Assembly: GCA_007376135.1 (NCBI GenBank)
Contig: VMFR01000001.1
Span: forward strand, 379,016-443,015
Direction of reading: 5' to 3'
DNA from: Parcubacteria group bacterium Gr01-1014_31
GTDB lineage: Bacteria; Patescibacteriota; Patescibacteriia; Buchananbacterales; GWA2-38-13
DNA length: 64,000 nucleotides
Shown here: positions 10,959 to 64,000 of the stretch, piece after piece
Layout of the letters: every line of letters begins with the position of its first letter
How positions within the stretch are numbered: position 1 is the first letter of the stretch
The notes under the pieces: generated by a model
The model's database searches: none
The model's input: the letters and a program-made list of their open reading frames with translations, nothing else
What the model was told of the DNA's origin: nothing
Position numbers and translations under genes: made by a program

Positions 10959-14318
<3,360 letters not shown>

Positions 14319-14319
14319 A

Positions 14320-15282: not shown

Positions 15283-16587
15283 TTATGGGTAACGGGAAAA
15301 GAATTCCTTGAACACGGAGATCTCATAATCCATTTCCTCGTCGCCCAGGCCATGGAAACAGCCAACCCAGAAGGAGTTGCGCATGATGGCGTCGGTGTTG
15401 TCCAGACTTTCCGCGATGCGGTGCGGCACGCCGTAGGTTTGCAGGTAGGGCTGCTTGGCAAGGTTGCCCGCGAGGATGAGGCGCGTCACCACCTTGCGCG
15501 ATTCCAAGTAGTTGACCAATTCTTCGCGCGTGAAGGGTGAGCCCGGCTTGACCGTCAGATAAAAACCAAACCAGCTGGGAACCGTATTGGCGGGCGCTTC
15601 GGGCAGCTGCAGAAATTTCGTGAACGGTAGCAATCCCGCGTGCAAACGCCCGGCGTTGCGGCGCCGTTGCGCGGTGAACTCGGGCAATTTCTTGAACTGG
15701 GTGATGCCGGCGGCGATCTGGATGTCGGTAATTTTCAAGTTATACCCGATCTCGGTGAAGATGTACTTGTGGTCGTAGCCGGCCGGCATCTGCCCGAACT
15801 GGAAGGCAAAGCGCCTGCGGCACACATTGTCCTCGCCGGTGCGGCACCAGCAGTCGCGGCCCCAATCGCGGAAACGGCGCACCAGCTGCGCGAGTTCCTT
15901 GGTCTTGGCGACCACCGCTCCCCCCTCGCCCATGGTCATGTGGTGGCCGGCGTAGAAACTGAACGTCGCCAGGTCGCCGAAACTGCCGACCGGCTTGCCC
16001 GCGACCGTGCTGCCAATGGCGTCGCAACAGTCCTCTACCAGCCACAGCTTGTGCTGGTCGCAGAACGCGCGCACGGCGGGCGCATCGAACGGCACGCCCA
16101 AACTGTGCGGCATGAAGACCGCCTTTGTTTTGGGTGAATAGGCCTGGCGCAGTCGCTCCACGGTCGTGTTCATCGTCGCCAATTCTACGTCCACGAATAC
16201 CGGTATGGCGCCGTACAGGATAAGCGGATTGATGGTCGTCGGAAATCCGGCGGCAATGGTGATGACCTCGTCGCCGGGTTTCAGCCGCCGTTCGCCCAGC
16301 TTTTCCGACGTCAGCGCAGCTGTGGCTAAAAGGTTGGCGGAACTTCCCGACGTGGTCGTGATGCAGCTGGCAGCGCTAAAGTGCACGGCAAACATTTTTT
16401 CAAACACGGTGGCGTTCTTGCCTTCGGTCCACCAGCCTTCCAGCACCGCCTCAACCATGGCCGCCATATCGTCGGCGTCAATGCGCTTGCCCGACGCGGA
16501 AACCGGCGTCTCACCGGGGATGAATTTCTTGGCGCCGTAATTTTTACGGTAGTGTTCGTCGATGTACTGGCGCAACTGGTCGTCCAT
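15283..16587 (-). CDS. rfbH: CDP-6-deoxy-D-xylo-4-hexulose-3-dehydrase (E1; RfbH/DdhC/AscC, PMP-dependent DegT-family)
   Basis: TTTSGSSANLLATAALTSEKLGERRLKPGDEVITIAAGFPTTINP...IPVFVDV; active-site His pair FSFYAGHHMTMGEGG (His in the Lys position); Cys-rich FRDWGRDCWCRTGEDNVCRRRF; GYDHKYIFTEIGYNLKITDIQAA. About 434 aa like E1, longer than ColD. Confidence 0.85.
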   Translation of the reverse strand: MDDQLRQYIDEHYRKNYGAKKFIPGETPVSASGKRIDADDMAAMVEAVLEGWWTEGKNATVFEKMFAVHFSAASCITTTSGSSANLLATAALTSEKLGERRLKPGDEVITIAAGFPTTINPLILYGAIPVFVDVELATMNTTVERLRQAYSPKTKAVFMPHSLGVPFDAPAVRAFCDQHKLWLVEDCCDAIGSTVAGKPVGSFGDLATFSFYAGHHMTMGEGGAVVAKTKELAQLVRRFRDWGRDCWCRTGEDNVCRRRFAFQFGQMPAGYDHKYIFTEIGYNLKITDIQIAAGITQFKKLPEFTAQRRRNAGRLHAGLLPFTKFLQLPEAPANTVPSWFGFYLTVKPGSPFTREELVNYLESRKVVTRLILAGNLAKQPYLQTYGVPHRIAESLDNTDAIMRNSFWVGCFHGLGDEEMDYEISVFKEFFSRYP

Positions 16588-18166: not shown

Positions 18167-18655
18167 ATGCAACCGAATGACGAGCAGGTCCTGTTGCGAC
18201 TGCTAAAAAAACTTGCTGTCGCACAGCGGCAACGGCGGCCAATGCCGCCGGCAGTATTTGACGCGCTCCTCAAAGTCGTTCCGTTGGTCACCGTGGAAAC
18301 CGTCATTACTCGCACCGTGAAAGGAAAAACGCAGGTGCTGCTGACCCGCCGCTCAAAAAATGAAACCCGCTACCCGGGCATCTGGCACGTGCCCGGTTCG
18401 TTCCTGCGGAACCTCGAGCAGACCAAGGACGTACTTTCTCGCATCGCAAAAAAAGAACTTGGAGTACCCAAGTTCACCGAAGCAAAATTCGTCACCTGGC
18501 TGAACGTCTACGACTGTCCTGTCGGACATTTCGTGTCCATCTTCTACCGTTGCGAGCTGGGAAAAGCTACCACGCGGGGCCGGTGGTTCTCGCCAACGAA
18601 ACTGCCGGCCGGTGTCCTTGCTTACCACCGCGACATCGTCGCGGCCGTTGCCTAG
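18167..18655 (+). CDS. Nudix hydrolase, Gmm-like, tandem paralog B
   Basis: Collinear with paralog A (LLRLLKKLAV...VPLVTVETVITRTV...QVLLTRRSKNETRYPGIWHVPGSFL...RIAKKELG). ATG 18167 is preferred over ORF-track 18122. Confidence 0.5.
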   Translation: MQPNDEQVLLRLLKKLAVAQRQRRPMPPAVFDALLKVVPLVTVETVITRTVKGKTQVLLTRRSKNETRYPGIWHVPGSFLRNLEQTKDVLSRIAKKELGVPKFTEAKFVTWLNVYDCPVGHFVSIFYRCELGKATTRGRWFSPTKLPAGVLAYHRDIVAAVA

Positions 18656-19626
18656 GGTTCCAGCCGCCGCCCAATGGTCGCCGCAGGAAGTTGGCGGTCG
18701 TCGTTCAGGATCTCCCGCACAATGAACCGCGGACGGGCTTTCACTTCCACGAACATCCGCCGCAGGTACTCGCCGATGATGGCAATGCCCAGCAGCTGCA
18801 CGCCGCCCAAAAACAGCATTAAAAGCACGATGGTGGGCACGCCGCGCGGCGCGTCGGGATTGATGAAGTAGGCGACCAGGTACGCGATGATGAGCAAGGC
18901 GGAACCCGCCACCACTGTCAGCGCGATCTTGGACAGCCACTCCAAGGGCTTGAAAGAAAAATTGATGATGAGGGTGAGCGCCCAGTAGAGGTCTTTGAGC
19001 CAGTTGGTATCCGATACACCGGCCTCGCGATTTTTGCGCTCGTACGGCACGCCGGCCTGGCGGAATCCCACGTACGCGCGCATGCCGCGGATATACAGGT
19101 CGCGTTCGGTGACGTACGCGACCGCATCAATTGCCTTGCGGTCCAACAGCGAGAAATCACCGGCATCCAGCGGAATGGTGATGTAGGCCAATCGTTTGAA
19201 CAGCCGATAGAACGCCTTGTAGGACAGCCGGCGCAGCCATGTGCCCTGGCGGCGCACCCGCACGCCGTAGACGACCTCAAAACCCTGGCGCCATTTTTCC
19301 ACCAGCTGCGGGATGAGCTCGGGCGGGTCCTGTAGGTCGGCGTCTAAGAGCACCGCACAGTCGCCGTTGCAGTATTGCAGCCCGGCCAAGTACGACGGTT
19401 GCGGCGAACCGCCATTGCGTGCCATTAGGATGACGCGCACACGCGAGTCGGCCGCGATCAGCTCGCGGTAGATTGTCTCCGAGGTATCGGTGGACGCGTT
19501 GTCCACGTAGATGAGTTCGTACGGCATCCCCAATTGCCGCAACACCGCGCTGACGCGTTCATAGTTGCGCTTGAGGTTTGGCGCTTCGTTGTAGCAGGGA
19601 ATGATGGCCGAGATCTTTTTCTCCAT
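18652..19626 (-). CDS. GT2 polyprenyl-phosphate sugar synthase (GtrB/ArnC-like), paralog 2
   Basis: ISAIIPCYNEAPNL...YVDNASTDTSE...[36 protein letters not shown] plus C-terminal TM helices. Confidence 0.8.
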   Translation of the reverse strand: MEKKISAIIPCYNEAPNLKRNYERVSAVLRQLGMPYELIYVDNASTDTSETIYRELIAADSRVRVILMARNGGSPQPSYLAGLQYCNGDCAVLLDADLQDPPELIPQLVEKWRQGFEVVYGVRVRRQGTWLRRLSYKAFYRLFKRLAYITIPLDAGDFSLLDRKAIDAVAYVTERDLYIRGMRAYVGFRQAGVPYERKNREAGVSDTNWLKDLYWALTLIINFSFKPLEWLSKIALTVVAGSALLIIAYLVAYFINPDAPRGVPTIVLLMLFLGGVQLLGIAIIGEYLRRMFVEVKARPRFIVREILNDDRQLPAATIGRRLEP

Positions 19627-19632
19627 ACACCG

Positions 19633-20388
19633 TTATTTAGGAGGCTGGCGCAGCCCACCCAGCCGGGCCAGCCGGGGGCAACGCATCACCGTATAGGAAC
19701 GGTCGCTGTCCTGGCCGGGAGTTTGTCGTTCCTCCACCCAGCGCAGCGTGCCGTCCGGCAGCGTCTTTTTATATAAAGGAATAACTCCGGTCGGCGTGAA
19801 TCCTGTGCGCTCGTACAAACGGATGGCGCGCGGATTGTCGGTCATCACCTTCAAACGCAACTCATGCAAATCCAGTGCGGTGAACGCCCAATCCATCAGT
19901 GTTTGCACCGCTGGGGTCATCGCGCCCGGCAGGAGGTCGGCGCGGCCGCGCAGGATGCTGTCGATCTCGCAGTGCCGTTCGGCAAAGTTGCAGCGGAACA
20001 ACCCCAAATGTCCGACGTACTCCCCCGCCGGAGTCTGCAGCCACGCCAGCAGCCGGTCGGGAGCCTGCAACACCGCGTTGCGCAGCCAACGCGTCGTGCC
20101 TTCTACCGTAATTTCAAAACGTTCCGGATACCAACGCTGATTTTCCTGGCGCCAGCGCGCCAGGTATTCCACGTGCGCCGGGTCATCCAGCGACGCGGCA
20201 GTGACCGGCGAAATTTCGGCAACTCGAACGCCTGACATGACGACCGGCAACGGAGCACCCCCGAACGCCGCCAAATCACCGCGCTTCAAGGCGGAGAACA
20301 CCCCCGTGACGTACTGTTCGTACGTCGCTGCCATAGCGATTGCGTTACCCGCCCGCACGGCTGCCGTGCCGGGCCAGGTAATCATCAT
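19633..20388 (-). CDS. GNAT-family N-acetyltransferase with N-terminal extension (WecD/RffC-like architecture)
   Basis: C-terminal GNAT core LHELRLKVMTDNPRAIRLYERTGF. Start may be the internal Met at 20334 (MAATYEQY), which removes the 44-nt overlap with rfbG. Confidence 0.6.
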   Translation of the reverse strand: MMITWPGTAAVRAGNAIAMAATYEQYVTGVFSALKRGDLAAFGGAPLPVVMSGVRVAEISPVTAASLDDPAHVEYLARWRQENQRWYPERFEITVEGTTRWLRNAVLQAPDRLLAWLQTPAGEYVGHLGLFRCNFAERHCEIDSILRGRADLLPGAMTPAVQTLMDWAFTALDLHELRLKVMTDNPRAIRLYERTGFTPTGVIPLYKKTLPDGTLRWVEERQTPGQDSDRSYTVMRCPRLARLGGLRQPPK

Positions 20389-21373
20389 ACCACGCGATCG
20401 TCCGCTTGAGGCCCTCCTCCAGCGTGATTCCCGGCGTCCAACCCAATACCTGGCGCGCCTTCTCCGAAGACAGGTACTGCGCGGGAATTTCGTTGGTCGC
20501 CGTATTGAGGATGCGCGGCGGCAGGGGTTTCCCCATCAATTCGGTTATCTTTGCCACCAGCTGCAGCACGGTCTGCGGCTCGCCGCTGGCGAAGTTGAAT
20601 GCCTGTCCTTCCAGGCGCTTTTCGCGCAAATGTTGGGCCAGCGTCAGATAGGCGTTCGCCACGTCTTCAATGTAGAAATAATCGCGGACCAATTGGCCGT
20701 TGCTCCTGACGATCGGGTGCTCATCATGCCACAGCGACTGGATGGTGCCCGGCACGATGCGGTTGAAGTTCAGGTCGCCGCCGCCGAAAAAGTTGCCGCA
20801 GCGGACGATGCCGACCGGCAACCGATAGGTATGCCAATAGCTCTGCGTGATAAGGTCGACGCAGCTTTTGCTCACGTCGTAGGGATAGCGGCCGACCAGC
20901 GGCGTGTCCTCGGTGTAGGGAAGCTGGTCCTGGTTGCCGTAGGCCTTGTCGGACGACGCGACCAGCACCCGCTGCACGTGCGGGTTGCGCCGCGCGGATT
21001 CCAGCAGGTTCCAGGTGCCGCGGATGTTAGATTCCAGCGTGGAGAGCGGATTACGGTTGGCAATGCCGACGATCGCCTGCGCGCCAAGATGGAACACCGT
21101 ATCGATCTCGTGTTCGTTGAGCACGCGTTCCAGCAGGTCGCGGTCCAAAAGGTCGCCAAAGACCTGCGCCACGTGCGGCAGATACCCGCAGGTGTACAGG
21201 TGCGAACGCGGAGGAATATCGCGCACCAGCACCGTGACATTGGCGCCGCAGTCCACCAGCTGCTTGATCAGCCAGGGTCCCAGCAGCCCGGTCGGACCGG
21301 TAACAAAAACGCGGCGGTCATACCAAAAACCGCGCGCTGCTGCTGGATTGCTGTCCGTCAATGGAGTGCTCAT
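20345..21373 (-). CDS. rfbG: CDP-glucose 4,6-dehydratase
   Basis: RRVFVTGPTGLLGPWL...VFHLGAQAIVG...SSDKAYGN...YPYDVSKSCVDL...VRCGNFFGGGD, collinear with RfbG/DdhB. Confidence 0.85.
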   Translation of the reverse strand: MSTPLTDSNPAAARGFWYDRRVFVTGPTGLLGPWLIKQLVDCGANVTVLVRDIPPRSHLYTCGYLPHVAQVFGDLLDRDLLERVLNEHEIDTVFHLGAQAIVGIANRNPLSTLESNIRGTWNLLESARRNPHVQRVLVASSDKAYGNQDQLPYTEDTPLVGRYPYDVSKSCVDLITQSYWHTYRLPVGIVRCGNFFGGGDLNFNRIVPGTIQSLWHDEHPIVRSNGQLVRDYFYIEDVANAYLTLAQHLREKRLEGQAFNFASGEPQTVLQLVAKITELMGKPLPPRILNTATNEIPAQYLSSEKARQVLGWTPGITLEEGLKRTIAWYDDYLARHGSRAGG

Positions 21374-22621: not shown

Positions 22622-23419
22622 CTACTTTGCCCCCGCGTCCCACGATACCCACGGCCGGACGCCGCGGTCCCACATTTTGTTCAACTCCTCGTAGTGAAGG
22701 TACGTATCCATGGCATAGAAAAAGCCTTCGTGCTTGTAGACCGCCAGCTGCCGTTCAGCGGCCAACTGCCGCAACGGCTGCTGCTCCAGGATGCAGTTGC
22801 CGTCCGGGGACAGGTAGCGAAAGATGCCGCGGTTGAAGACAGCAAATCCCCCATTGACGTAGCCTTCCAGCTGCGGTTTCTCGCTGAAACTGGTCACCAG
22901 GTTGCCGTCTATTTCCAGGATGCCGAACCGCGAATTCGGATGCACGCCGCTCAAGGTGGCGATCTTTCCCTGCTGACGGTGAAATTCCACGACCTTGGGG
23001 ATGTTGACGTCCGAGACCCCGTCGCCGTAGGTCATGAGGAACGTCTCGTCATTGCCCAGGTACGGCTCGATACGGGCGATGCGCGAGCCCGTCAGCGTCT
23101 CCTGCCCGGTATCCACGAACGTAATGGTCCAATCCTCCAGCATCGCGGGCTTGTGAAAGCTGACGCGCTCACGCCCGTCCCCGCGCAGTTTCACCGTCAC
23201 GTCGTTGACCATTTCCTCGAATTTGAGGAAATAGTCGCGGATCATGTCGCCCTTGTAGCCCAAGCAGAGGACGAAATCCTTGTACCCGTACTGCGAGTAG
23301 AGCTTCATAATATGCCACAAAATGGGCCGGCCGCCGACCGACACCAAAGGCTTGGGCTTGTATTCGGTTTCCTCGCGCAGGCGGGTGCCCTTGCCGCCGC
23401 ATAACAAGACGACTTTCAT
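22622..23419 (-). CDS. rfbF: Glucose-1-phosphate cytidylyltransferase
   Basis: MKVVLLCGGKGTRLREETEYKPKPLVSVGGRPILWHIMKLYSQYGYKDFVLCLGYKG...LTGSRIAR...TYGDGVSDVNI...HPNSRFG, near-collinear with Salmonella RfbF/DdhA. Confidence 0.9.
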   Translation of the reverse strand: MKVVLLCGGKGTRLREETEYKPKPLVSVGGRPILWHIMKLYSQYGYKDFVLCLGYKGDMIRDYFLKFEEMVNDVTVKLRGDGRERVSFHKPAMLEDWTITFVDTGQETLTGSRIARIEPYLGNDETFLMTYGDGVSDVNIPKVVEFHRQQGKIATLSGVHPNSRFGILEIDGNLVTSFSEKPQLEGYVNGGFAVFNRGIFRYLSPDGNCILEQQPLRQLAAERQLAVYKHEGFFYAMDTYLHYEELNKMWDRGVRPWVSWDAGAK

Positions 23420-47100: not shown

Positions 47101-47927
47101 AAAAGGATACCGGCGAACGCGCCGTCCTGGGCCGCGCCGCCGCCGCGCTCCACGACCACCTGATCGATGGTGGCATCACCGTCCGAAGAGGCGGTGAAGT
47201 TCACGATGGTGAACGGGACGCGGATGGCGTTCTGGACCACGATGCCCGAGGCCGGCGTATCCGACGCCAGGGCCAGGGTCAGCGTGGAGCCGACCGGACC
47301 GGTCGGAACGGTGACCGTGCCAGACAGACCCTTATCCGTGCTGATGTCCGGGGACGAAGCCTGCTGTGCCACCCGGTCGAACTCCGAAGCGGAATTGACC
47401 TTCTTGGGGGTCACTCCGTCGGTCTCGACGGCGACGCTGTAGTTGGCGAAGAACGCATCCGGCAGGTCGTTGATCTCCTTGTTCCACATGCTGCCGTACA
47501 GCGCGGTCGCAACGGCTTCCGTGGCGACATGCCACAGGACGCCGCCCTTGGCGACGACGTAGACGCGCGGGTCGGTCGTCACCTTCAACATCTTCGTGCC
47601 GGGCCGGTAGTTGACGTTCCCGCCGATCAAGTAGGATTCCAATTCGGTCTTGGCGATCTCCTTGACGGTCGAGAAGTTGGCGTACCAGGTTTTGTACGTT
47701 TTTTCATCCGGGAAAACGTAACGCTTCCCATTGCTCGCCAGGTAGTAGACCGAACGGCAAGGATCGGTCGGACCGGCAACGCCGACGCACTTGAGTTTGA
47801 TCAAGTCGCCTGGCATTGCCGCGCCCAAGGCGATGGAAACGCCCATCACCCCTACCGACCATGCGATGGTCGTACCGGCTACGGTGTAGGTAAGCGCACG
47901 CTTTACCCGCTTGGTAAAGTTGCTCAT
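44118..47927 (-). CDS. Giant secreted Ser/Thr/Gly/Val-rich beta-repeat surface protein (S-layer/adhesin-like, unknown function)
   Basis: 1269 aa; N-terminal signal/anchor KRALTYTVAGTTIAWSVGVMGVSIALGAAMPG; distinct N-terminal domain (CRSVYYLASNGKRYVFPDEKTYKTWY); then low-Cys Thr/Ser-rich repeated beta-type modules with many N-x-S/T sequons and Thr/Ser clusters. Confidence 0.6.
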   Translation of the reverse strand: MSNFTKRVKRALTYTVAGTTIAWSVGVMGVSIALGAAMPGDLIKLKCVGVAGPTDPCRSVYYLASNGKRYVFPDEKTYKTWYANFSTVKEIAKTELESYLIGGNVNYRPGTKMLKVTTDPRVYVVAKGGVLWHVATEAVATALYGSMWNKEINDLPDAFFANYSVAVETDGVTPKKVNSASEFDRVAQQASSPDISTDKGLSGTVTVPTGPVGSTLTLALASDTPASGIVVQNAIRVPFTIVNFTASSDGDATIDQVVVERGGGAAQDGAFAGILLWDADTDSRLSNTSKTLNTDHQAVFNEDIVVKAGTTRRIIIAGNMAAALTNYAGEVPTLGIRSIVMKGSTVQVGAGLPLFGNYQTLNNTVVIGSLTVTTGSDNPSNSTQKIGTTDFIFTGLRVTAGSAEDVNVTRIVFNQGGTAGDSDVTNLDLVIDGVVVATVAKATSKDAAFDLRANPIVLTKGKSKQVNLRGDIVSGSARTIRWDIKKQDDVIAIGKTFGFSPTPTFNNSSEPYHNQGATITISRGTVAVSSTAGTTNSNIAEDTKEVTLGKFDFDVRGESLSFESVGIQFRLATSTAGARISDITSVKLVDSAGKVLGGPVDPTSDHIGEDTATDEYGTATITDNFILPPGVHTITVKGDLNADFGANDTIRARIHPTAMTVKGQDTGETLVAADKTPAGVQTSAIYTVKTAAMAVSVSNTPVAQNVVGGSQDWVFAEFRLDAADSGEDIKVTQMKSELFTVTQAPNGFTNWRIMDGSTTLQTSSSPDPTGATAGGATTTFVFVNPLILTKGTVKTIKVIANVSSAATSGSIRVGLPTPHATGSQFSATGKDSGQSATVTLSVGDGQTMTLQSGGTLTIAALTQNYQAGLMPANTSGLEAGIFRMTSVRETIKVEKIYLSATSTRNLTTGNTKSAFNQIRAIHLYDGGTRLTPEGGVQPTTTNVSGRVTVLIDVTSNPIMVTTSAAKDILVKIDTNAVTRYPQASTGDPGQGFTLTVNAALDVTAKGAQSGTTLAASAITLSGATLNDWAVMHTVPTVTVNGDLGSDKLVPGKLTSGSNKDLYKFRVAADSAGDVYLFQVGFLVSQQRATLTNPKIYVDGSQQIAATTTAAQTMTVTNSRRDDVFLLWFTSDGNAPAAGNLTVSPYRVIAGQSKVFTLKGDLACWADGGCGGTSGFGVLELSFLGDAAFPGGASNATSTYPDSALLLYTGNQDNKNHFIWSDASIMGAVGVASGTATTSEQWFNGYRVKSGASATSRLNATSTDATFNYP

Positions 47928-56566: not shown

Positions 56567-56597
56567 GCGAAGCTCGTTCAACACAAGTTCTTTGGAA

Positions 56598-56635
56598 GCC
56601 GTCTGCATCCCTGCAGGCGGCTTTCTCTTGTATTT
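56598..56635 (+). terminator. Rho-independent terminator after the amidase gene
   Basis: gccgtctgca-tccc-tgcaggcggc (10-bp stem with one G-U pair) followed by tttctcttgtattt. Confidence 0.5.
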
Positions 56636-56704
56636 GAGCGAAATATCGGTTATAGTGAAATCCTCCGTCGGCGCGTTGCGCCAACGGCTTCAACACCGCT
56701 TTTT

Positions 56705-56728
56705 CGGGTATTAGCGCAGCGGTAGCTC
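56705..56728 (+). repeat. Partial copy of the tRNA-Pro 5' end (23 of 24 nt identical)
   Basis: cgggtattagcgcagcggtagctc compared with tRNA 5' end cggggattagcgcagcggtagcgc; no matching 3' acceptor strand follows. Confidence 0.5.
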
Positions 56729-56813
56729 CGCCATTCGACGGGGCAGGCGGACTTGGCTTGCCCCACACCTTTCCTGAATCTTTTATCCACTCTTTTCTTT
56801 TTTCGCTCTGACT

Positions 56814-56885
56814 CGGGGATTAGCGCAGCGGTAGCGCGCTTGGTTCGGGACCAAGAGGCCGGGGGTTCGAATCCCCCATCCCCGA
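56814..56885 (+). tRNA. tRNA-Pro: tRNA-Pro (anticodon CGG)
   Basis: Cloverleaf folded by hand: acceptor CGGGGAT/ATCCCCG, D stem GCGC/GCGC, anticodon stem CTTGG/CCAAG with loop TTCGGGA, T stem GGGGG/CCCCC with loop TTCGAAT, discriminator A; CCA not encoded. Confidence 0.85.
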
Positions 56886-56963
56886 GCAAGAGCGAAAACA
56901 AAACTTCCGTTTTCTGCTCCAAAACTTAAACCCCGTTGGAAAATAAGAAAGGTGTGGGGTGAA

Positions 56964-57058
56964 GGACCAAGAGGCCGGGGGTTTCCCGCCACCGAAATAT
57001 TTCTTTAAAAAGATGGGCGGGATCCCGCCGCAGGCGATGACGAATCCCCCATCCCCGA
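56964..57058 (+). repeat. Duplicated 3' half of tRNA-Pro (anticodon-stem 3' strand to acceptor end plus cccgag), interrupted by a 57-nt insertion with its own hairpin
   Basis: ggaccaagaggccgggggtt [tcccgccaccgaaatatttctttaaaaagatgggcgggatcccgccgcaggcgatgac] gaatcccccatccccgag; the flanks are identical to tRNA positions 39-73. Resembles att-site remnants of integration at a tRNA 3' end. Confidence 0.5.
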
Positions 57059-57099
57059 GAGAACGGTGATTTTTCTTGGCACGACGGGCTCAACAAGGT

Positions 57100-57993
57100 A
57101 TGTCCAACCAAGGAACGCACAACACCATCCCGGTCGCCATCATCGGCACGGGCAACATCGGCAGCGACCTGCTGGTGAAGGTCCTGCGTTCCCCGTACCT
57201 GACCTGCGCAATGTTCACCGGCCAGCATCCTGACTCGCCGGGCATCGCCAGGGCGCGGGAACTCAATATCCCCACCTCGGCGGATTCCATTGCCGCCATT
57301 GAACGCGACCCTGGTTGCTGCGACATCGTGTTCGACGCGACTACCGCCGAGGCCCATCGTCGCCACGCCACGGTCCTCGCCCGCCTGAAAAAATTCGTGA
57401 TCGACATGACCCCGTCGCAAGCCGGCGGGATGTGCGTGCCGCTCCTCAATCTGGAAGACAGCCTTGCCAAACAGAACGTCAACATGGTGACGTGCGGCGG
57501 CCAGGCCAACGCCCCCATCGCGCGCGCCATCATGGCGGTGCACCCGGACATCCAGTACATGGAAGTCGTTTCCAGCATCGCCTCCAAGTCGGCCGGCATC
57601 GGCACGCGTAACAACATCGACGAGTACACGCAGACGACCAGCGACGGCATCCGCGCGCTGGCGGGCGTGCCGCAGGTGAAAACCATCATCATCCTCAACC
57701 CCGCCGACCCGCCCTACCTGATGCACAACACCCTCTACGCCGAGATCGAACGACCCGACCTGCCAGCGCTGGAACGTTCCATCAAGCACACGGTGGAAAA
57801 GATCCGGGAGTACGTGCCCGGTTTCAGATTGCTCTACGGGCCCGTGCAGGAAAGCGGGCGCGTCACCACTATCACCGAGGTGGTCGGCCGCGGGGACTAC
57901 CTGCCCGCCTACGCCGGCAACCTGGATATCATCAACTGCGCGGCCGTGGCGGTCGCCGAACGCTACGCGAAAAAAAAACTGGGGCTGCACTAA
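57100..57993 (+). CDS. Acetaldehyde dehydrogenase (acetylating), DmpF/MhpF/BphJ family
   Basis: VAIIGTGNIGSDLLVKVLR...VNMVTCGGQA...SIASKSAGIGTRNNIDEYT...ILNPADPP...YLPAYAGNLDI, collinear with MhpF. ATG at 57100 is preferred over the TTG at 57076. Confidence 0.85.
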   Translation: MSNQGTHNTIPVAIIGTGNIGSDLLVKVLRSPYLTCAMFTGQHPDSPGIARARELNIPTSADSIAAIERDPGCCDIVFDATTAEAHRRHATVLARLKKFVIDMTPSQAGGMCVPLLNLEDSLAKQNVNMVTCGGQANAPIARAIMAVHPDIQYMEVVSSIASKSAGIGTRNNIDEYTQTTSDGIRALAGVPQVKTIIILNPADPPYLMHNTLYAEIERPDLPALERSIKHTVEKIREYVPGFRLLYGPVQESGRVTTITEVVGRGDYLPAYAGNLDIINCAAVAVAERYAKKKLGLH

Positions 57994-57996
57994 CCT

Positions 57997-59043
57997 ATGG
58001 AACGCCGCATCTTCATCGTTGATTCCACGCTGCGCGACGGCTCCCACGCCGTTTCCCACCAGCTCAACGCCGACCAGGTGCGCGGCTATGCGCAGCGCGC
58101 CGAGGCCGCCAATATCCCCCTGGTGATGGTGGGCCACGGCAACGGCCTGGGCGCGTCGAGCCTACAGCTGGGCCGTTCGCTGCTCCCCGACCGCGAAATG
58201 CTGGCAATCGCCCGGCAGGAACTGAAGCGTTCCAAACTGGGGGCGTTCCTCATCCCGGGATTCGGCACCATCAAAAACGACATCGGCCCCGCCATTGACG
58301 CCGGCATCGACGCGCTGATGGTCGCCTGCCACTGCACGGAGGCCAACATCACACGCCAGCACCTCCAGTATGCCGCCAGCCGCGGGGTTACCGCCTACGG
58401 CGTGCTGATGATGACCCACATGGCAACGCCCGGCGAGCTGCTGGAGCAAGCCAAGCTGATGGAATCCTACGGCGTCCAGGGAGTGCTCCTGATGGATTCG
58501 GCCGGCGCCTACCTGCAACGCGACGTGACCGAAAAGGTCGGCACCCTCGTTGCCGGCCTGCGGACCGCGGTCGGCTTTCATCCCCACAACAACCTCGGGC
58601 TGGCGGTCGCCAATGCGGTTGCCGCCGTCGAGGCGGGCGCCAGCATCATTGATGGAACTGCGCGCGGCTTTGGCGCCGGCGCGGGCAACGTCCAACTGGA
58701 GGTCATCATCGCCGTCCTCCACCGCCTGGGCTACCCGACCGGCGTGGACCTCTATCGCCTCATGGATGCATCCGAGTACGTCGCGCGCGAGGTGATGAAA
58801 AAACCCATTGCTATCAATGCCGTGACCCTCACCAGCGGACTGGCCGGGGTGTTCTCGGGATTCGCGCCGCACGCCATCCGCGCCGCGGAACGCTTCGATG
58901 TGGACGTACGCGACATCCTGATGGAATTGGGACGCCGCAAAGCCGTCGGCGGCCAGGAAGACCTCATCTTGGACGTGGCGATGAACCTGAAACAGAAGAA
59001 AGAACAACGGCCTGAGGATTTTCAATTGGAATCCCTGTCATAA
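57997..59043 (+). CDS. 4-hydroxy-2-oxovalerate aldolase family (DmpG/MhpE/BphI-like, HMGL-like TIM barrel)
   Basis: IVDSTLRDGSHAVSHQ...VGHGNGLGASS...HPHNNLGLAVANAVAAVEAGASIIDGTARGFGAGAGNVQLEV...GRRKAVGGQEDLILDVA. Confidence 0.85.
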   Translation: MERRIFIVDSTLRDGSHAVSHQLNADQVRGYAQRAEAANIPLVMVGHGNGLGASSLQLGRSLLPDREMLAIARQELKRSKLGAFLIPGFGTIKNDIGPAIDAGIDALMVACHCTEANITRQHLQYAASRGVTAYGVLMMTHMATPGELLEQAKLMESYGVQGVLLMDSAGAYLQRDVTEKVGTLVAGLRTAVGFHPHNNLGLAVANAVAAVEAGASIIDGTARGFGAGAGNVQLEVIIAVLHRLGYPTGVDLYRLMDASEYVAREVMKKPIAINAVTLTSGLAGVFSGFAPHAIRAAERFDVDVRDILMELGRRKAVGGQEDLILDVAMNLKQKKEQRPEDFQLESLS

Positions 59044-59052
59044 CTTCAGCCT

Positions 59053-60843
59053 ATGCGCGTTGCCGACTACATCGTCAAATTCCTGGAAGACCAGGGGGTC
59101 CGCACGATCTTCATGATCGCCGGCGGGCAGGCAATGTGGCTCAACGACGCGCTGCAGCGCAGCGGAATCTCCCCCGTCTGCACCCACCACGAACAAGCCG
59201 CGGCCATGGCCGCGGAAGCGTACGGCCGCATCTCCGGAAAACTCGGCGTCTGCATGGTCACCGCCGGCCCGGCCGGCGTCAACGCGCTCAACGGCGTGGT
59301 CGGCGCCTACGTGGATTCGTCGCCAATGCTGGTCATCTCGGGCCAGTCGGCGCTGCCGAACGTCGAGTACATGAAACAGAGCGGCATCCGCCAGTACGGC
59401 CTGCAAGGCATCTTGCTCGAACCGATGATCAAGCCCGTGACCAAATACTTCGTCACGGTGGACGACGCGGCGTCGATCGCCTACTACCTGGAGAAAGCGG
59501 TCTGGGAGGCGACCACCGGACGACCCGGCCCGGCCTGGATAGAAGTGCCGCTGGACGTGCAGCGCATGGAGGTGCCGGAAAAATTGCTGCGCCACTTTAC
59601 CCCGCCCCAGCTCCCCGCACCCGCGGCGCAGTTATTCGAGCACGCGGCCGCGACCGCGGCGCTGGTGAGCAAGAGCAAACGCCCGTTGCTGCTCGTCGGC
59701 CAGGGGGTGCGCATCGCCAAGGCGCAGGCGGCGGTCGCCAAACTTTTGGCGCGCGCGCCCATGCCGGTCGCCACCACCCGATTGGCCATTGACGTCGTGG
59801 ACAGCGGTAATCCCCTGTTTGCCGGCCGCCCGGGATTGTACGGCGACCGCTCGGCCAATTTCGCGGTGCAGACCGCCGACGTCATCGTGGCAATCGGCGC
59901 GCGGCTGGATCCGGGGATCGTCGGCTACGACGCCAAAGACTGGGGTCGGCGTGCCCAAAAGGTCATCGTGGACCTCGACGACAAGGAGCTACACAAGCCA
60001 GGCCTTGAGCGCGCCACCCGCTACCGCCATGACGCGCGCGCGTTCCTGGAGGCTTTGGAGGGGGCGCTGGCCACGACCGCCTGGCCCGACCGGCAGCGCT
60101 GGATCACCCGCTGCCAAACGTGGCGGCGCGACTATCCCACCGTCAGTCCCGCCTATCAAAAAGAAACCCCGGTGAATTCCTACTATCTTGCCGAACGCCT
60201 GTCCCACGCGGCCGACGTTGGTGACGTCGTCGTGGTCGACACCAGTTCTCCGTTCCACGTCGTCTGCCAAGCCTGGCATCTAAAACTCGGCCAGCGCTTC
60301 CTTACCACCGGCGGCATCTCCACCATGGGCTACTGGGCGGCGGGCATCGGCGCGTGCCTCGGCGACGGCAAACGGCGCACCATCATCGTCACGGGCGACG
60401 GCTGCCTGCAGATGAACCTCCAGGAACTGGCGACCATCAAGCACCATCAGCTCCCCATTAAACTGTTCGTCATCAACAATAACGGTTACCTGCTCATCCG
60501 CCACACGCAGAAAACCCACATGGAAGGCCGCATGATCGGGGAGAGCCCGGCCTCGGGCCTGTGGTGCCCCGACAGCACCAAGATCGCGGGGGCCTACGGC
60601 ATACCGGCGGTACGGATTGCCTCGCCCGAGGGCATTGACGACAAGATCCGGCAAGTGCTGAACACCGACGGACCGGTCATCTGCGACGTCCTCTCCCCCG
60701 AATGGCAAATGATCGTACCCCGCGTCGCGTCCGAAAAGCGGCCGGACGGCTCGATGGTATCGCGGCCGTACGAAGACCTCTTCCCATTCCTTCCCCCCGA
60801 CGAACTGCGGCGCACGCTCGCCGTGGATGACCCCGCGCAGTAA
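59053..60843 (+). CDS. Thiamine-diphosphate-dependent enzyme, acetolactate-synthase large-subunit family (YerE-like candidate for 2-carbon branch attachment)
   Basis: N-terminal Pyr domain TIFMIAGGQAMWLNDAL...HHEQAAAMAAEAYGRISGKLGVCMVTAGPAGVNALNGVVGAY; C-terminal ThDP-binding GDGCLQMNLQELATI...FVINNNGY. Confidence 0.75.
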   Translation: MRVADYIVKFLEDQGVRTIFMIAGGQAMWLNDALQRSGISPVCTHHEQAAAMAAEAYGRISGKLGVCMVTAGPAGVNALNGVVGAYVDSSPMLVISGQSALPNVEYMKQSGIRQYGLQGILLEPMIKPVTKYFVTVDDAASIAYYLEKAVWEATTGRPGPAWIEVPLDVQRMEVPEKLLRHFTPPQLPAPAAQLFEHAAATAALVSKSKRPLLLVGQGVRIAKAQAAVAKLLARAPMPVATTRLAIDVVDSGNPLFAGRPGLYGDRSANFAVQTADVIVAIGARLDPGIVGYDAKDWGRRAQKVIVDLDDKELHKPGLERATRYRHDARAFLEALEGALATTAWPDRQRWITRCQTWRRDYPTVSPAYQKETPVNSYYLAERLSHAADVGDVVVVDTSSPFHVVCQAWHLKLGQRFLTTGGISTMGYWAAGIGACLGDGKRRTIIVTGDGCLQMNLQELATIKHHQLPIKLFVINNNGYLLIRHTQKTHMEGRMIGESPASGLWCPDSTKIAGAYGIPAVRIASPEGIDDKIRQVLNTDGPVICDVLSPEWQMIVPRVASEKRPDGSMVSRPYEDLFPFLPPDELRRTLAVDDPAQ

Positions 60844-60849
60844 TTCTCT

Positions 60850-61971
60850 ATGCCGCTCAAACCCTCAAAGAAAAAGATCGCGTTTGCCGGCTCCTCCATG
60901 ACCCAAAAAGAGGTCGACTACGTCGTCGACGCGGTCAAGCACGGCTGGTACGACACTTTTGACAAGGATACCAAACTGTTCGAACAAGGAATTGCCGCCT
61001 ATACCGGACGCGCCTACGCGCTGGCCGGTTTTTGCTGCACCCATTCCATGCACCTGGGGTGTCTGGTCTCGGGCTTCGGACCCGGGGACGAGGTCATCTG
61101 CACCGATTTTTCCTGGGCGGCCACCGCGCACGTCATTGCCTACACGGGGGCCACTCCCGTGTTCGTGGACATCGACCCCGATACCTGGTGCATCGACCCC
61201 AAAGCGATCGCCGATGCCATCACGCCAAAGACCAAGGGCATCATGCTGGTGCACAGCTTCGGCCAGCCGGCGGATATGGATGCTATCATGCGAATCGCGC
61301 GCGAGCACAACCTGCGTGTGGTGGAGGATGCCGCGCCGTCACTCGGCTCGATGTACCACGGGAAAAGCGTCGGCAGCTTCGGCGACGTCGGATGTTTTTC
61401 CTTCCATGGCGCCAAGATCGCGGTCAGCGGCGAAGGCGGGGTATTTCTGACCGACCGCAAGGAGATGTACGACCAGGCGGTGTTACAATCCAACATGGGA
61501 CGCACGAACCGTTTGGCGAACTTCTGGTGCGATTCCATGGGCTACGAATACCAAATGGCCAATGTCGTCGCGGCCCTGTGTCGCGCCCAGGTAGAACGCA
61601 TCGAAGAATTGGTTGCCATGAAACGCCGGATCTTTGACTGGTACTGGGAACGGCTCAAGAACGTGCCGGAGCTCAAACTCCTGCGCGAAAAACCCGATAC
61701 CCGCTGCAATTACGCCTACCCGGCGGTGCTGCTGCAGACCGACGAGATCAGCCGCAACGACCTTGTTTCCCAGTTAAAAACTCTCAACATCCACGCCCGC
61801 GCGGCCTTTCCGCGTATGAGCAAATTCCCGATGTACCAGGCGCGCTTCAAAAATCCGGTCGCCAGCCTCGTGGAAACCCATGGCTTTAATCTGCCGTCCG
61901 CGCTTAATATCACGGAAGCGGACGCGGACTTCGTATGCACCGCCGTCAAACACCTGCTGGGCCGCAGCTAA
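60850..61971 (+). CDS. DegT/DnrJ/EryC1/StrS-family PLP-dependent sugar aminotransferase
   Basis: DVGCFSFHGAKIAVSGEGG (catalytic Lys present, unlike rfbH), DEVICTDFSWAATAHVIAY, RVVEDAAPSLGS. Confidence 0.85.
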   Translation: MPLKPSKKKIAFAGSSMTQKEVDYVVDAVKHGWYDTFDKDTKLFEQGIAAYTGRAYALAGFCCTHSMHLGCLVSGFGPGDEVICTDFSWAATAHVIAYTGATPVFVDIDPDTWCIDPKAIADAITPKTKGIMLVHSFGQPADMDAIMRIAREHNLRVVEDAAPSLGSMYHGKSVGSFGDVGCFSFHGAKIAVSGEGGVFLTDRKEMYDQAVLQSNMGRTNRLANFWCDSMGYEYQMANVVAALCRAQVERIEELVAMKRRIFDWYWERLKNVPELKLLREKPDTRCNYAYPAVLLQTDEISRNDLVSQLKTLNIHARAAFPRMSKFPMYQARFKNPVASLVETHGFNLPSALNITEADADFVCTAVKHLLGRS

Positions 61972-63152
61972 AAAAAATCGGCTCGCCGATATCCTGCCTG
62001 CGGCCGCTGCCGGAGGACGAGATCTTCGGTCTCCAACGGGCCTTTGCCGCCGACCCGCGACCGGAAAAACTGAACGGCGCCATTGGCGTATACACCGACG
62101 AGACCGGCAAACCCTTCGTCCTGCCGGTCGTTCGTCAGGCGTTCGAGCATTTACAGGCGTCCAATTTCAACTACCTGCCCATTAGCGGCGACCCGCGATT
62201 CTTGGAACTGACCGCAAAGCTGGTATTCGGCGAGCAGCGGTACGCCACCCTCGCGCCAACCTTGGCGGCCCAAGGCGTTTCCGGCGGCACCAACGCGCTG
62301 TCGCTGTTCGGGAGTCTGGCAAAAGCCGCCGACCGGCGGCCGACCCTGATCATCGGCGAACCGACCTGGGAAAACCACAAAAAGATCTTCGACCACCTGG
62401 GCTTTGCCTGGAAAATATTTCCGCACCTGACCGCGGCGTACACCTTCAACCTGACGGCAGCCCTCGCGGCGCTCAAAACGCGGCGGCCGTCATGGGTGCT
62501 GCTGCACGGCGGAGCAACGCACAACCCGACCGGCGTGAACCCGGCCCAACAGGAATGGCAGATCCTTGCCCGCACCATGGCCGAGTATGGCCACACGGCC
62601 TGCGTGGACCACGCCTATACGGGTTTGGGCGACGGACTGATTGAGGACTCCGCGCCCATTCACCAGTTGATTGCCGCCGGCGTGCCCACGTTCATCGCCG
62701 TCTCTTTTTCAAAAAATATGACTCTCTACCAGCACCGCGCCGGTGCGCTGCTGTATGCGGGTAAAACCGCCAAGGAAAAAACCGCCGTTGCCAGCCATCT
62801 GGAGCACCTGTTCCGGGCAACGAACTCCAACCCGCCGGCGGCCGGCGAACTGGTGGTCGGCAAGATCCTCTCCGAACCGCAGCTCCGGCGGCAGTGGGAG
62901 GGAGAACTGGCCGCAATGCGCTCCAGCATCAATGAACGGCGCGCGCAGTTCATAAAACTCGCCGGCGCACCCTACGGCTACCTGGCGCGATGCCGCGGGC
63001 TGTTCTCCCTACTGCAGCTTGGAATCAAGCGCATCCGAGCACTGCGGGAACAGCAGGGCATTTACCTGCTGTCCAGCGGCCGCGTGAACTGGGGCGGCAT
63101 CGCCAGTGCCGACCTGCCGCGACTGGCCGAGGTCGTCCGTACCGCCGATTGA
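61935..63152 (+). CDS. Class I aminotransferase, AspC/TyrB-like
   Basis: Collinear with E. coli AspC: LNGAIGVYTDETGKPFVLPVV, HGGATHNPTGVNP, SFSKNMTLYQHRAGAL, NSNPPAAG, SGRVNWGG. Only ATG is at 61935, overlapping the DegT gene by 37 nt; start uncertain. Confidence 0.75.
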   Translation: MHRRQTPAGPQLKKIGSPISCLRPLPEDEIFGLQRAFAADPRPEKLNGAIGVYTDETGKPFVLPVVRQAFEHLQASNFNYLPISGDPRFLELTAKLVFGEQRYATLAPTLAAQGVSGGTNALSLFGSLAKAADRRPTLIIGEPTWENHKKIFDHLGFAWKIFPHLTAAYTFNLTAALAALKTRRPSWVLLHGGATHNPTGVNPAQQEWQILARTMAEYGHTACVDHAYTGLGDGLIEDSAPIHQLIAAGVPTFIAVSFSKNMTLYQHRAGALLYAGKTAKEKTAVASHLEHLFRATNSNPPAAGELVVGKILSEPQLRRQWEGELAAMRSSINERRAQFIKLAGAPYGYLARCRGLFSLLQLGIKRIRALREQQGIYLLSSGRVNWGGIASADLPRLAEVVRTAD

Positions 63153-63316
63153 TCTGCCTGCCGGTTCCGGAGAGTATTGCCCGAAGAGCGTTGACCGGAA
63201 GAACCTCCCGGTTGACCCATTGACTGACCAATAGTGTTCCACTGTCCGTTGAAAATTAAGCGTCCGTTTCCATATTGCACATTCTACAGCGGTGATCATT
63301 CACCAAGGAGTCAAAC

Positions 63317-64000
63317 GTGCCCCAGAACAAAGTAGTGTTGTCCCCCCGTACGCCGCAGTCCCTGCGAAAGGTCGTGGTCATCCTCATCAAACCGACGAGC
63401 TACGATGATGAGGGCTTCCCGCTCCGCTTCCTGCGCGGCGTGCTGCCATCCAACGGCCTGGCTGCCATGTACGCCCTGACAAAACAAGCCCTGTCGCAAG
63501 TGGTACCTGCGGGCGTGACGACCGAAGTCTACATGCTCGAAGACGGCATCCGCCGCCACGCCAAGACGCTTACCCGTCTGTACCGGCGGTTCCCTGAAAC
63601 GGGGGCCAAGCTGATCGTGGGGCTCGCCACGGTACAAACGGCGCAATTCCCCCGCGCCTGCGACCTCATTGACCGCTGGCAGGCGGTGGGCGCAACGTGC
63701 GTCATCGGCGGCTTCCATGTGTCCGGCTCCATTTCCGTCATGACCGACGGCGTCAGCGACCCGCGGCGACCGGGTATCCCCTGTCCGCACCGCATGCCCG
63801 CCGAAATTCAGGCGCTCATGGATCGAGGGGTGGTCGTTTTCCACGGCGAGGCCGAGGAGAAATGGCCGACGGTGCTGGGCGACATCCTGCGGAACGACCC
63901 ACAACCGCTCTACCGCGGCGGGCTACCCGACCTCCGTCAGGCGCCGCTGCCCGAGTACACACCGGACTACTTCCGTAGTAGCTTCGCGACCGCCATCGGC
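63317..64000 (+). CDS. B12-binding-domain radical-SAM-type protein (partial; N-terminal cobalamin-binding domain only, runs off window end)
   Basis: GTG start 6 nt after AAGGAG. VVVILIKPTSYDDEGFPLRF...GLAAMYAL...IVGLATVQTAQFPRACDLIDRWQAVGATCVIGGFHVS...VVVFHGEAEEKWPTVL matches the class-B rSAM B12-binding domain pattern; CxxxCxxC would lie beyond the window. Confidence 0.4.
   Translation, partial: MPQNKVVLSPRTPQSLRKVVVILIKPTSYDDEGFPLRFLRGVLPSNGLAAMYALTKQALSQVVPAGVTTEVYMLEDGIRRHAKTLTRLYRRFPETGAKLIVGLATVQTAQFPRACDLIDRWQAVGATCVIGGFHVSGSISVMTDGVSDPRRPGIPCPHRMPAEIQALMDRGVVVFHGEAEEKWPTVLGDILRNDPQPLYRGGLPDLRQAPLPEYTPDYFRSSFATAIG

Follow-up and report, generated by a model that had tools for sequence, protein, structure and literature searches.

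Bacterial sugars such as yersiniose A and erwiniose carry a carbon branch that is added by a thiamine diphosphate (ThDP)-dependent enzyme. Yersiniose A is made with the ThDP flavoenzyme YerE and with YerF (Chen, Guo and Liu 1998, as cited in PMC9306805), and according to a review of 2025, more than 200 YerE-like gene clusters were covered by an in-silico survey of 2024. For erwiniose, Steitz et al. 2022 (PMC9306805) put forward a pathway in Pectobacterium atrosepticum SCRI1043 and demonstrated part of it. This pathway uses a BphJ-like dehydrogenase (ErwJ), a BphI-like aldolase (ErwI), a ThDP enzyme (ErwE) and a reductase (ErwF), encoded beside the genes for CDP-4-keto-3,6-dideoxyglucose, and ErwE accepts (R)-4-hydroxy-2-oxopentanoate and rejects pyruvate (PMC9306805). 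Here we analyse a stretch of 64,000 nucleotides (the window) from the uncultivated Parcubacteria group bacterium Gr01-1014_31 (contig VMFR01000001.1, positions 379,016 to 443,015), in which five plus-strand genes at 57100-63152 include relatives of ErwJ, ErwI and ErwE. We estimate a probability of roughly 0.7 that these five genes are one operon making the branch of an erwiniose-type 'longer-branched' CDP-sugar, in an amino variant.

The five genes are separated by 3-9 nt or overlap by 37 nt. The first encodes an acylating acetaldehyde dehydrogenase of the DmpF/BphJ/ErwJ type (57100..57993, +; TIGR03215, 367 bits for a cutoff of 282), which keeps the catalytic Cys of the TCGGQA motif and has 7z3s as its best match in the PDB (281 bits). 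It is followed by a class II pyruvate aldolase (4-hydroxy-2-oxovalerate aldolase) of the DmpG/BphI/ErwI type (57997..59043, +; TIGR03217, 398 bits for a cutoff of 286) that carries the DmpG_comm domain (95 bits). The third gene encodes a YerE/ErwE-like ThDP carboligase (59053..60843, +) with the Pfam domains TPP_enzyme_N, _M and _C and a match to the carboligase JanthE. The last two encode aminotransferases of the DegT and AspC types. An earlier note on this DNA, made from the sequence alone, had described a tRNA-Pro, a duplicated tRNA half and six same-strand genes, the sixth being a radical S-adenosylmethionine (radical-SAM) gene, and we recovered all of these in the same positions.

The window shares with the erwiniose pathway the presence of the three enzyme families in one cassette, in which the product of the aldolase would be the donor that the ThDP enzyme uses for a four-carbon (C4) branch. 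It also has the trait of the ErwE subtype that genes for a BphI-like aldolase and a BphJ-like dehydrogenase adjoin the ThDP gene (57100-59043). A profile of the ThDP enzyme, run against a single genome for each species, identified 80 loci, of which 69 had enough flanking sequence to read the gene order upstream. The dehydrogenase and then the aldolase stand directly before the ThDP gene, in this order, in all 69. The pair is an obligatory partner of this clade of ThDP enzymes, and the three genes form a fixed cassette. Its hosts include Patescibacteria, Elusimicrobia, Omnitrophota, Gastranaerophilales, Lentisphaerae, Planctomycetes, Clostridia and Lachnospiraceae, and Clostridium gasigenes DSM 12272 (L055) and Lachnospiraceae bacterium ZAX-1 (L070) are cultured carriers. 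The earlier note had found such a catabolic-looking pair unusual in a glycan locus. The pair is indeed there, but it is neither unexplained nor new, because the cassette matches the published logic of the erwiniose pathway (PMC9306805).

The ThDP enzyme keeps the catalytic Glu47 and the GDG...NN cofactor motif. Among proteins of solved structure, the nearest to it is JanthE (8rph; 397 bits, 1e-117), in an alignment over the whole length (residues 2-588), C-terminal tail included, whereas acetolactate synthases reach about 227 bits at most. It scores under every acetolactate-synthase equivalog cutoff (335 bits for TIGR00118, where 538 are required). These scores uphold the view that the enzyme is YerE-like rather than IlvB. 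JanthE itself is a YerE-like carboligase (PDB 8RPH/8RPI/8RPJ; PMC12188165) and reads CDG at the GDG motif of the window enzyme. The match to 5ahk, which we take to be PpYerE, is of 205 bits, which places the window enzyme in a distinct subclade.

The aldolase retains the equivalents of Arg17, Asp18, His21, His200 and His202 of DmpG (1NVM), which are invariant among 73 cassette aldolases, so that the metal ligands are in place, and so are the catalytic Arg and His; the earlier note had asked about the catalytic residues. It differs from BphI at positions that govern stereochemistry: Tyr-290 is replaced by Phe (F286), Leu-87 by Phe (F84) and Leu-89 by Ile (I86). BphI is strictly (4S)-specific and loses this control in the Y290F variant, and its L87W/Y290F and L87N/Y290F variants use the (4R) enantiomer alone (PMC3962088). 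All 73 cassette aldolases have Phe at the position of Tyr-290 and Phe, Tyr or His at that of Leu-87; the two residues that enforce (4S) in BphI are found in none of them. The chain-length gate at Leu-89 is Ile or Leu throughout, and Tyr-290 is kept in the three solved catabolic homologues with displayed alignments. Because Phe at Tyr-290 and an aromatic residue at Leu-87 mirror the engineered variants of BphI, we predict that the cassette aldolases are naturally (4R)-specific and act on short aldehydes. The window enzyme would then provide the very donor that ErwE needs. This natural (4R)-type signature appears to be new.

Could the set be a housekeeping or catabolic one, made of a lower meta-cleavage pathway, an acetolactate synthase and an aspartate aminotransferase (AspAT)? 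The names of the top-scoring curated families say so, and the first two enzymes do resemble the catabolic pairs DmpG/DmpF (PDB 1NVM), BphI/BphJ and HsaF/HsaG: they pass the equivalog cutoffs and share the metal ligands, Arg17, His21, the Cys and the communication domain. They differ from these complexes in the proposed biosynthetic direction, in the replacement of Tyr-290 and Leu-87, and in lacking meta-cleavage genes nearby. The Tyr that sets the stereochemistry is replaced in every cassette aldolase, the ThDP enzyme lies far under all acetolactate-synthase cutoffs, no hydratase, decarboxylase, ilvN or ilvC was found alongside, and the neighbourhood is consistently a glycan locus. In particular, neither ilvN nor ilvC follows the ThDP gene in the window or in an overlapping public contig (L001) that extends it, so the housekeeping ilv operon that the earlier note had considered is not borne out. 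We give this explanation almost no credence.

The earlier note had instead proposed a yersiniose-like sugar, in which the ThDP enzyme moves a two-carbon (C2) unit from pyruvate, the dehydrogenase/aldolase pair merely supplies or removes acetaldehyde and pyruvate, and the radical-SAM enzyme C-methylates the product. Yersiniose A biosynthesis does resemble what we propose, in that a YerE-like ThDP enzyme acts on the product of RfbH and the branch carbonyl is then tailored. The YerE-like enzyme, the presence of rfbF, rfbG and rfbH and a class-B-like radical-SAM fold are all in its favour. Yet YerE takes pyruvate and works without aldolase or dehydrogenase partners, which are invariant in loci of the window type (69/69), and the (4R) signature of the aldolase fits the donor of ErwE. 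Homologues of the radical-SAM protein are never syntenic with the cassette, and the protein itself matches no methyltransferase family. With the invariable linkage of the pair and the precedent of ErwJ, ErwI and ErwE, the characterised cassette enzyme of which rejects pyruvate (PMC9306805), the donor is most likely a C4 unit, and a C2 branch drawn from pyruvate seems improbable to us.

What the earlier note had right is the broader assignment of the gene set to a CDP-3,6-dideoxyhexose branched-sugar pathway. The genes rfbF, rfbG and rfbH adjoin the cassette in most of the 80 loci, and clustering of the flanking open reading frames (ORFs) retrieved RfbF-like proteins in 46 loci and RfbG-like proteins in 62, as well as RfbH-like proteins and GT2 glycosyltransferases. 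All of these have counterparts in the window. The glucose-1-phosphate cytidylyltransferase RfbF (22622..23419, -; TIGR02623, 300 bits, marginally under the cutoff of 300.25) is an orthologue of the cassette neighbour c5, the family found in 46 loci. The RfbG-like CDP-glucose 4,6-dehydratase (20345..21373, -; TIGR02622, 206 bits for a cutoff of 278) is 45% identical to the neighbour family c4. The CDP-6-deoxy-4-hexulose 3-dehydrase RfbH (15283..16587, -; PRK15407) passes its cutoff of 423 with 596 bits. A PgfS/ArnC-like GT2 polyprenyl-phosphate glycosyltransferase (18652..19626, -; NF047588, 218 bits, under cutoff) has orthologues with 47-53% identity that flank the cassette in five loci (L013, L014, L021, L033 and L069). 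The rfb genes that the earlier note placed upstream are therefore present, but they are not adjacent: they lie 34-41 kb away on the opposite strand. Evidently, the cassette has become separated from them in this lineage.

The fourth gene of the putative operon starts 6 nt after the ThDP gene and encodes a DegT-family sugar aminotransferase (60850..61971, +; PF01041, 328 bits). It keeps the Schiff-base Lys, where 3-dehydratases carry His, and scores below all NCBIfam equivalog cutoffs, the top one being that of the LegC family (271 for 420). Orthologues with 71-73% identity are found two genes past the ThDP gene, behind a GNAT N-acetyltransferase, in the same five loci as the GT2 orthologues. 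In L060, L065 and L070, orthologues with 53-59% identity come after both a GNAT and a class I aminotransferase. The GNAT of the first group (c9), located between the ThDP and DegT genes, is 32-39% identical to a GNAT encoded elsewhere in the window (19633..20388, -; Pfam Acetyltransf_3), which is a candidate partner of DegT. In the metagenome contig L091, GNAT c9 and DegT are fused, and the order of genes (dehydrogenase, aldolase, ThDP enzyme, GNAT::DegT, AspC-like) is that of the window with the GNAT added. The fused protein has 587 aa (5833-7596) and is encoded directly after the ErwE-like ThDP gene.

In many cassette loci, another enzyme is found in this place. A short-chain dehydrogenase/reductase (SDR) of the epimerase/dehydratase family directly follows the ThDP gene in 36 of 77 loci. 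The presence of a DegT orthologue near the cassette is anti-correlated with that of an ErwF-like SDR: 2 loci have both, 8 have DegT alone, 54 have the SDR alone and 16 have neither (Fisher p = 7e-4). The window has no orthologue of the SDR families c7, c8 or c10, the top matches being 22-25% identical and falling on the RfbG-like and Fcl-like genes. From this anti-correlation, the lack of the SDR in the window, and the linkage of DegT to GNAT, including the L091 fusion, we infer that DegT and GNAT make an acetamido branch where other loci reduce the ketone. DegT probably takes over from an ErwF-type reductase and aminates the branch ketone. Amination of the branched sugar, suggested in the earlier note, is plausible. 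The replacement of the reductase by DegT and GNAT appears to be a new feature.

The best match of DegT in the PDB is a perosamine synthase, 3bn1 (225 bits), which raises the alternative that DegT is a GDP-perosamine-type synthase acting on the product of Gmd, with the branch ketone left as it is or reduced by another enzyme. DegT shares the fold and the catalytic Lys with Per (PDB 3BN1) and with other DegT 4-aminotransferases, a gmd gene that passes its equivalog cutoff is present in the window (13308-14507, -), and so is a GNAT. DegT itself reaches no equivalog cutoff, however, and its genomic partner is a ThDP carboligase and not Gmd: orthologues with 58-73% identity stand by the ThDP and GNAT genes in L013, L014, L021, L033, L069, L091 and L097, with no gmd in their flanks. 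A perosamine synthase, which we regard as unlikely, also fits poorly with the gap of just 6 nt in the window, with the L091 fusion that immediately follows the ThDP gene, and with the anti-correlation between DegT and ErwF-like SDRs.

The fifth gene overlaps degT by 37 nt and encodes a class I aminotransferase resembling AspC and TyrB (61935..63152, +; PRK09257, 316 bits for a cutoff of 377; 210 bits to the AspAT of E. coli). Its nearest relatives are 39-48% identical and form one clade of 35 sequences, in which the equivalents of Lys258, Arg266, Arg292 and Arg386 (numbering of the pig cytosolic AspAT) are invariant. None of the 79 other genome loci has the gene. Metagenome contigs, when scanned and looked up for it, gave 22 loci. 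In 11 independent metagenome lineages (L090, L091, L092-94, L095, L098, L103, L104, L106, L107, L109 and L112) it directly follows a YerE/ErwE-like ThDP gene at a distance of about 20-100 nt, and in L102 it directly precedes one; these loci are set among rfbF, rfbG, rfbH and GT2 genes. It is a true companion of the ThDP enzyme that recurs across lineages, most likely acting on the side of amino acids and 2-oxo acids because both carboxylate-binding arginines are kept. A clade of AspC-like enzymes tied to YerE/ErwE-like genes also appears to be new. We considered whether this enzyme might be the replacement of ErwF and rejected it: the gene occurs together with the c7 SDR in nine loci (L102-L108, L112 and L114), and the two arginines are conserved.

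A second class I aminotransferase is encoded between rfbF and the rfbG-like gene (21451-22617, -). Its top NCBIfam matches are all under cutoff (PRK06108, 306 bits; PRK07682, 275 bits; the guanitoxin enzyme GntC, 272 bits). In L060, L065 and L070, where GNAT and DegT are encoded beside the ThDP gene, a distant relative of it (cluster c14) stands between the two. Together with the AspC-like clade, this cluster makes two class I aminotransferase lineages linked to the pathway.

The pathway that we propose would start with the reduction of acetyl-CoA to acetaldehyde by the DmpF-like dehydrogenase. The DmpG-like aldolase, in complex with it, would condense acetaldehyde with pyruvate to (4R)-4-hydroxy-2-oxopentanoate. 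The ThDP enzyme would decarboxylate this hydroxy-keto acid and transfer the 3-hydroxybutanoyl unit so formed to C-4, the carbonyl carbon, of CDP-4-keto-3,6-dideoxyglucose, presumably supplied by RfbF, RfbG and RfbH. In canonical loci, an ErwF-like SDR would then reduce the branch ketone to give 3,6,8-trideoxy-4-C-(1-hydroxyethyl)octose, that is, erwiniose. In the window, DegT would aminate this ketone and the GNAT encoded at 19633-20388 would most likely N-acetylate the amine, with an amino or acetamido analogue of erwiniose as the predicted product. The PgfS/ArnC-like GT2 and GT-C enzymes might pass the sugar on by way of a polyprenyl phosphate carrier. More speculatively, the AspC-like enzyme might convert aspartate and 2-oxoglutarate into oxaloacetate and glutamate, the glutamate going to DegT and the oxaloacetate to the aldolase, where it could act as a decarboxylatively activated pyruvate enolate. 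BphI has an oxaloacetate decarboxylase side activity.

Several points weigh against this model. The genes for the acceptor sugar are distant and on the other strand, and no E3 (AscD-like) reductase partner of RfbH was detected among the window ORFs scanned with Pfam and NCBIfam. DegT orthologues and the SDR do occur together in two loci, L060 and L065. A GDP-perosamine synthase is the nearest solved relative of DegT and the window encodes Gmd, so DegT could serve a separate perosamine branch. The AspC-like gene and the c7 SDR share many loci, so that the role given to the former is tentative. The likeness to ErwE, ErwI and ErwJ is one of families and gene order. We infer all of the substrates, together with the stereochemistry, the amination site and the part played by the AspC-like enzyme, from the observed family assignments, catalytic residues, synteny and co-occurrence statistics. 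To our knowledge, no amino-erwiniose sugar has been described. We found no literature on aminated long-branched sugars, or on the gene triad in papers on O-antigens, beyond those of the Müller group, and a search of a plasmid collection returned IlvB alone (30% identity) and no match to ErwE, ErwI or ErwJ.

The window differs from the erwiniose system in lacking an ErwF-type SDR, with DegT and the AspC-like enzyme in its stead and the GNAT elsewhere, in the distance of 34-41 kb to the acceptor genes, and in its host, an uncultivated member of the Parcubacteria and not Pectobacterium. A dehydrogenase/aldolase pair in a glycan locus can be taken as a signature of an erwiniose-type longer-branched-sugar pathway, and this pathway is far wider than its described hosts, Pectobacterium and mycobacteria. 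Sugar structures could then be predicted from sequence for organisms that are not grown. The loci point to an amino-branched variant and to an uncharacterised companion clade of aminotransferases, and for biocatalysis they are of interest as a source of new ThDP carboligases that accept ketones and of natural pyruvate aldolases of the (4R) type. A more general scenario, which we hold to be doubtful but worth stating, is that bacteria of the candidate phyla radiation (CPR) and other uncultivated bacteria carry on their envelopes an undescribed amino or acetamido analogue of erwiniose, a 3,6-dideoxyhexose with a 4-C-(1-amino-3-hydroxybutyl) branch. It would be made by a naturally (4R)-specific aldolase of the DmpG family and an ErwE-like carboligase, with DegT and GNAT in place of the reductase and an AspAT-like enzyme coupling aspartate to the pathway.

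Other ThDP enzymes are encoded near the cassette in some of its loci. Split transketolase pairs (Transketolase_N and Transket_pyr/C) lie beside it in L011, L033, L037, L040, L043 and L051; published work has proposed transketolases as a second class of ThDP enzymes that branch keto sugars. In L019, L020, L023, L025, L029, L052 and L053, further YerE-like paralogues (one or two per locus, 30-41% identity) occur near the cassette. A second paralogous YerE-like gene (37% identity) accompanies the cassette and the AspC-like gene in L092 (12193-15802), and likewise in L093, L094 and L099. Loci of this type also hold a short-chain dehydrogenase and a gene resembling those of 3-dehydroquinate synthases, of the sugar-phosphate-cyclase type. 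This arrangement may be a second branching pathway.

Following the operon, a gap of 164 nt after position 63152 precedes the radical-SAM ORF, which runs off the end of the window. The 228 N-terminal codons are in the window (63317..64000, +), and the contig extension suggested in the earlier note yielded the full gene of 650 aa, with the CxxxCxxC motif as CPFLCSFC, in L001 (10980-12932). Past it, L001 has one further gene on the same strand, encoding a divergent PurM-like protein of the AIR-synthase family (13141-14253, +, just beyond the window end; purM model, 138 bits for a cutoff of 236), and then convergent 2-oxoacid:ferredoxin oxidoreductase genes. The radical-SAM protein is under all NCBIfam cutoffs, with HpnJ and BchE on top at 64 bits. 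The predicted structure of a 91% identical homologue (mean confidence score, pLDDT, of 91) is closest to AprD4 and then to the cobalamin-dependent CysS, TsrM, TokK and OxsB, likenesses that indicate a class-B-like architecture. The cobalamin-binding domain described in the earlier note is supported at the level of the fold only, by an N-terminal Rossmann-like domain; the Pfam B12-binding domain was not detected in the full-length protein, and the best structural match is AprD4. As far as we know, AprD4 does not bind cobalamin. The protein shares with AprD4 and the class B enzymes the Rossmann-like domain, the radical-SAM core and the CxxxCxxC motif; it differs from them in having about 200 further residues in a helical C-terminal domain, in the lack of a family-level match and in a gene that is not syntenic with sugar genes. 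The family of about 650 aa is well conserved across CPR bacteria, Polyangiaceae and others, always in a different gene context, and its helical C-terminal domain is rich in invariant Trp and Arg.

We rejected both of these downstream genes as members of the pathway. The radical-SAM gene is missing from the 80 cassette loci and the 22 AspC-like loci, save for a relative with about 90% identity, and in three distant genomes its homologues (54-67% identity) have unrelated genes for neighbours, such as IspH, Lnt and unknowns. The radical-SAM gene is preceded by a promoter-like site of its own and ends at a strong terminator. The PurM-like gene is never associated with the cassette outside that same relative and has terminators on both sides; its product shares only 74% identity with that of this closest relative, against about 90% for the neighbouring genes. 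These genes are probably neighbours and not pathway members, and the GenK-like role in C-methylation that the earlier note gave to the radical-SAM enzyme is not supported. The grouping of seven same-strand genes in the closest relative might suggest a non-glycan cluster, in which the ThDP enzyme, two aminotransferases, the radical-SAM enzyme and a PurM-like ATP-dependent cyclo-ligase convert the hydroxy-keto acid into an amino-acid-like or heterocyclic metabolite, and AspC-type enzymes do work on 2-oxo acids. But synteny at about 90% identity carries little information, strong terminators set the two genes apart, and the cassettes of 80 other species and 22 metagenome loci are never accompanied by the two genes, but by rfb genes and glycosyltransferases. 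We find such a cluster very improbable.

The first 44 kb of the window form one large glycan locus on the minus strand, very large for a CPR genome. It contains seven GT4 and several GT2 glycosyltransferases (two of them PgfS/ArnC-like), three PMT_2 GT-C enzymes, a methyltransferase, an Fcl-like SDR, a Wzy_C-TPR fusion (5591-8056), a UDP-glucose dehydrogenase and an asparagine synthase. A subtilase with FG-GAP repeats is encoded in the same part (1-44000). An undecaprenyl-diphosphate synthase gene is located 1.5 kb before the cassette.

Upstream of the operon lies a tRNA-Pro gene with anticodon CGG (56813..56887, +; found by ARAGORN and by Rfam RF00005, 71.5 bits), which is 100% identical in a relative, L010. 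The layout in the closest relative is the same as in the window. Two partial copies of it are present, where the earlier note had reported the 3' half. Sequence inspection placed one, of the 5' 22 nt (5' strand of the acceptor and D arm) with 1 mismatch, at 56705..56726 (+); it is kept in L010, there with a perfect acceptor match. The other (56961..57059, +) runs from the 3' strand of the anticodon stem to the acceptor end and consists of 56961-56983 and 57041-57059, the T loop being split by about 57 nt. In an Rfam scan of the region, the true tRNA-Pro was the sole match and the 5' copy was not scored as a tRNA. The insert (56984-57040) holds the hairpin TCCCGCC...GGCGGGA; its sequence is unrelated between the window and L010 (~6590-6655), and both flanks are conserved. 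The insert could be a scar left by recombination at an attachment site in the T loop.

The tRNA fragments invite the idea of an island bounded by tRNA repeats and confined to a few strains, raised in the earlier note. We rejected it, as the fragments fail to bracket the genes: the sole additional 3' copy stands 74 nt past the tRNA and before the genes, and no distal repeat was found downstream in L001. There is no integrase among the annotated neighbours of the cassette region, the G+C content of the region (0.61-0.65) is that of the rest of the window, and the cassette is spread across phyla.

The non-coding DNA around the tRNA-Pro is 96-99% identical between the window (56567-56960) and L010 (6200-6581), against a DNA identity of 85-92% for the genes around it. 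The tRNA is flanked by an inverted repeat of 9 nt (CCCCACACC at 56761-56769 and GGTGTGGGG at 56951-56959). The conserved flanks and the repeat suggest a functional RNA, a regulatory element or a longer tRNA precursor. Further upstream, a tRNA-Gly(TCC) call of 89 nt (47781-47869, -) falls inside the 5' end of an ORF of 1269 aa (44118-47927, -) that has no Pfam match, so either the start of this ORF or the tRNA call is wrong.

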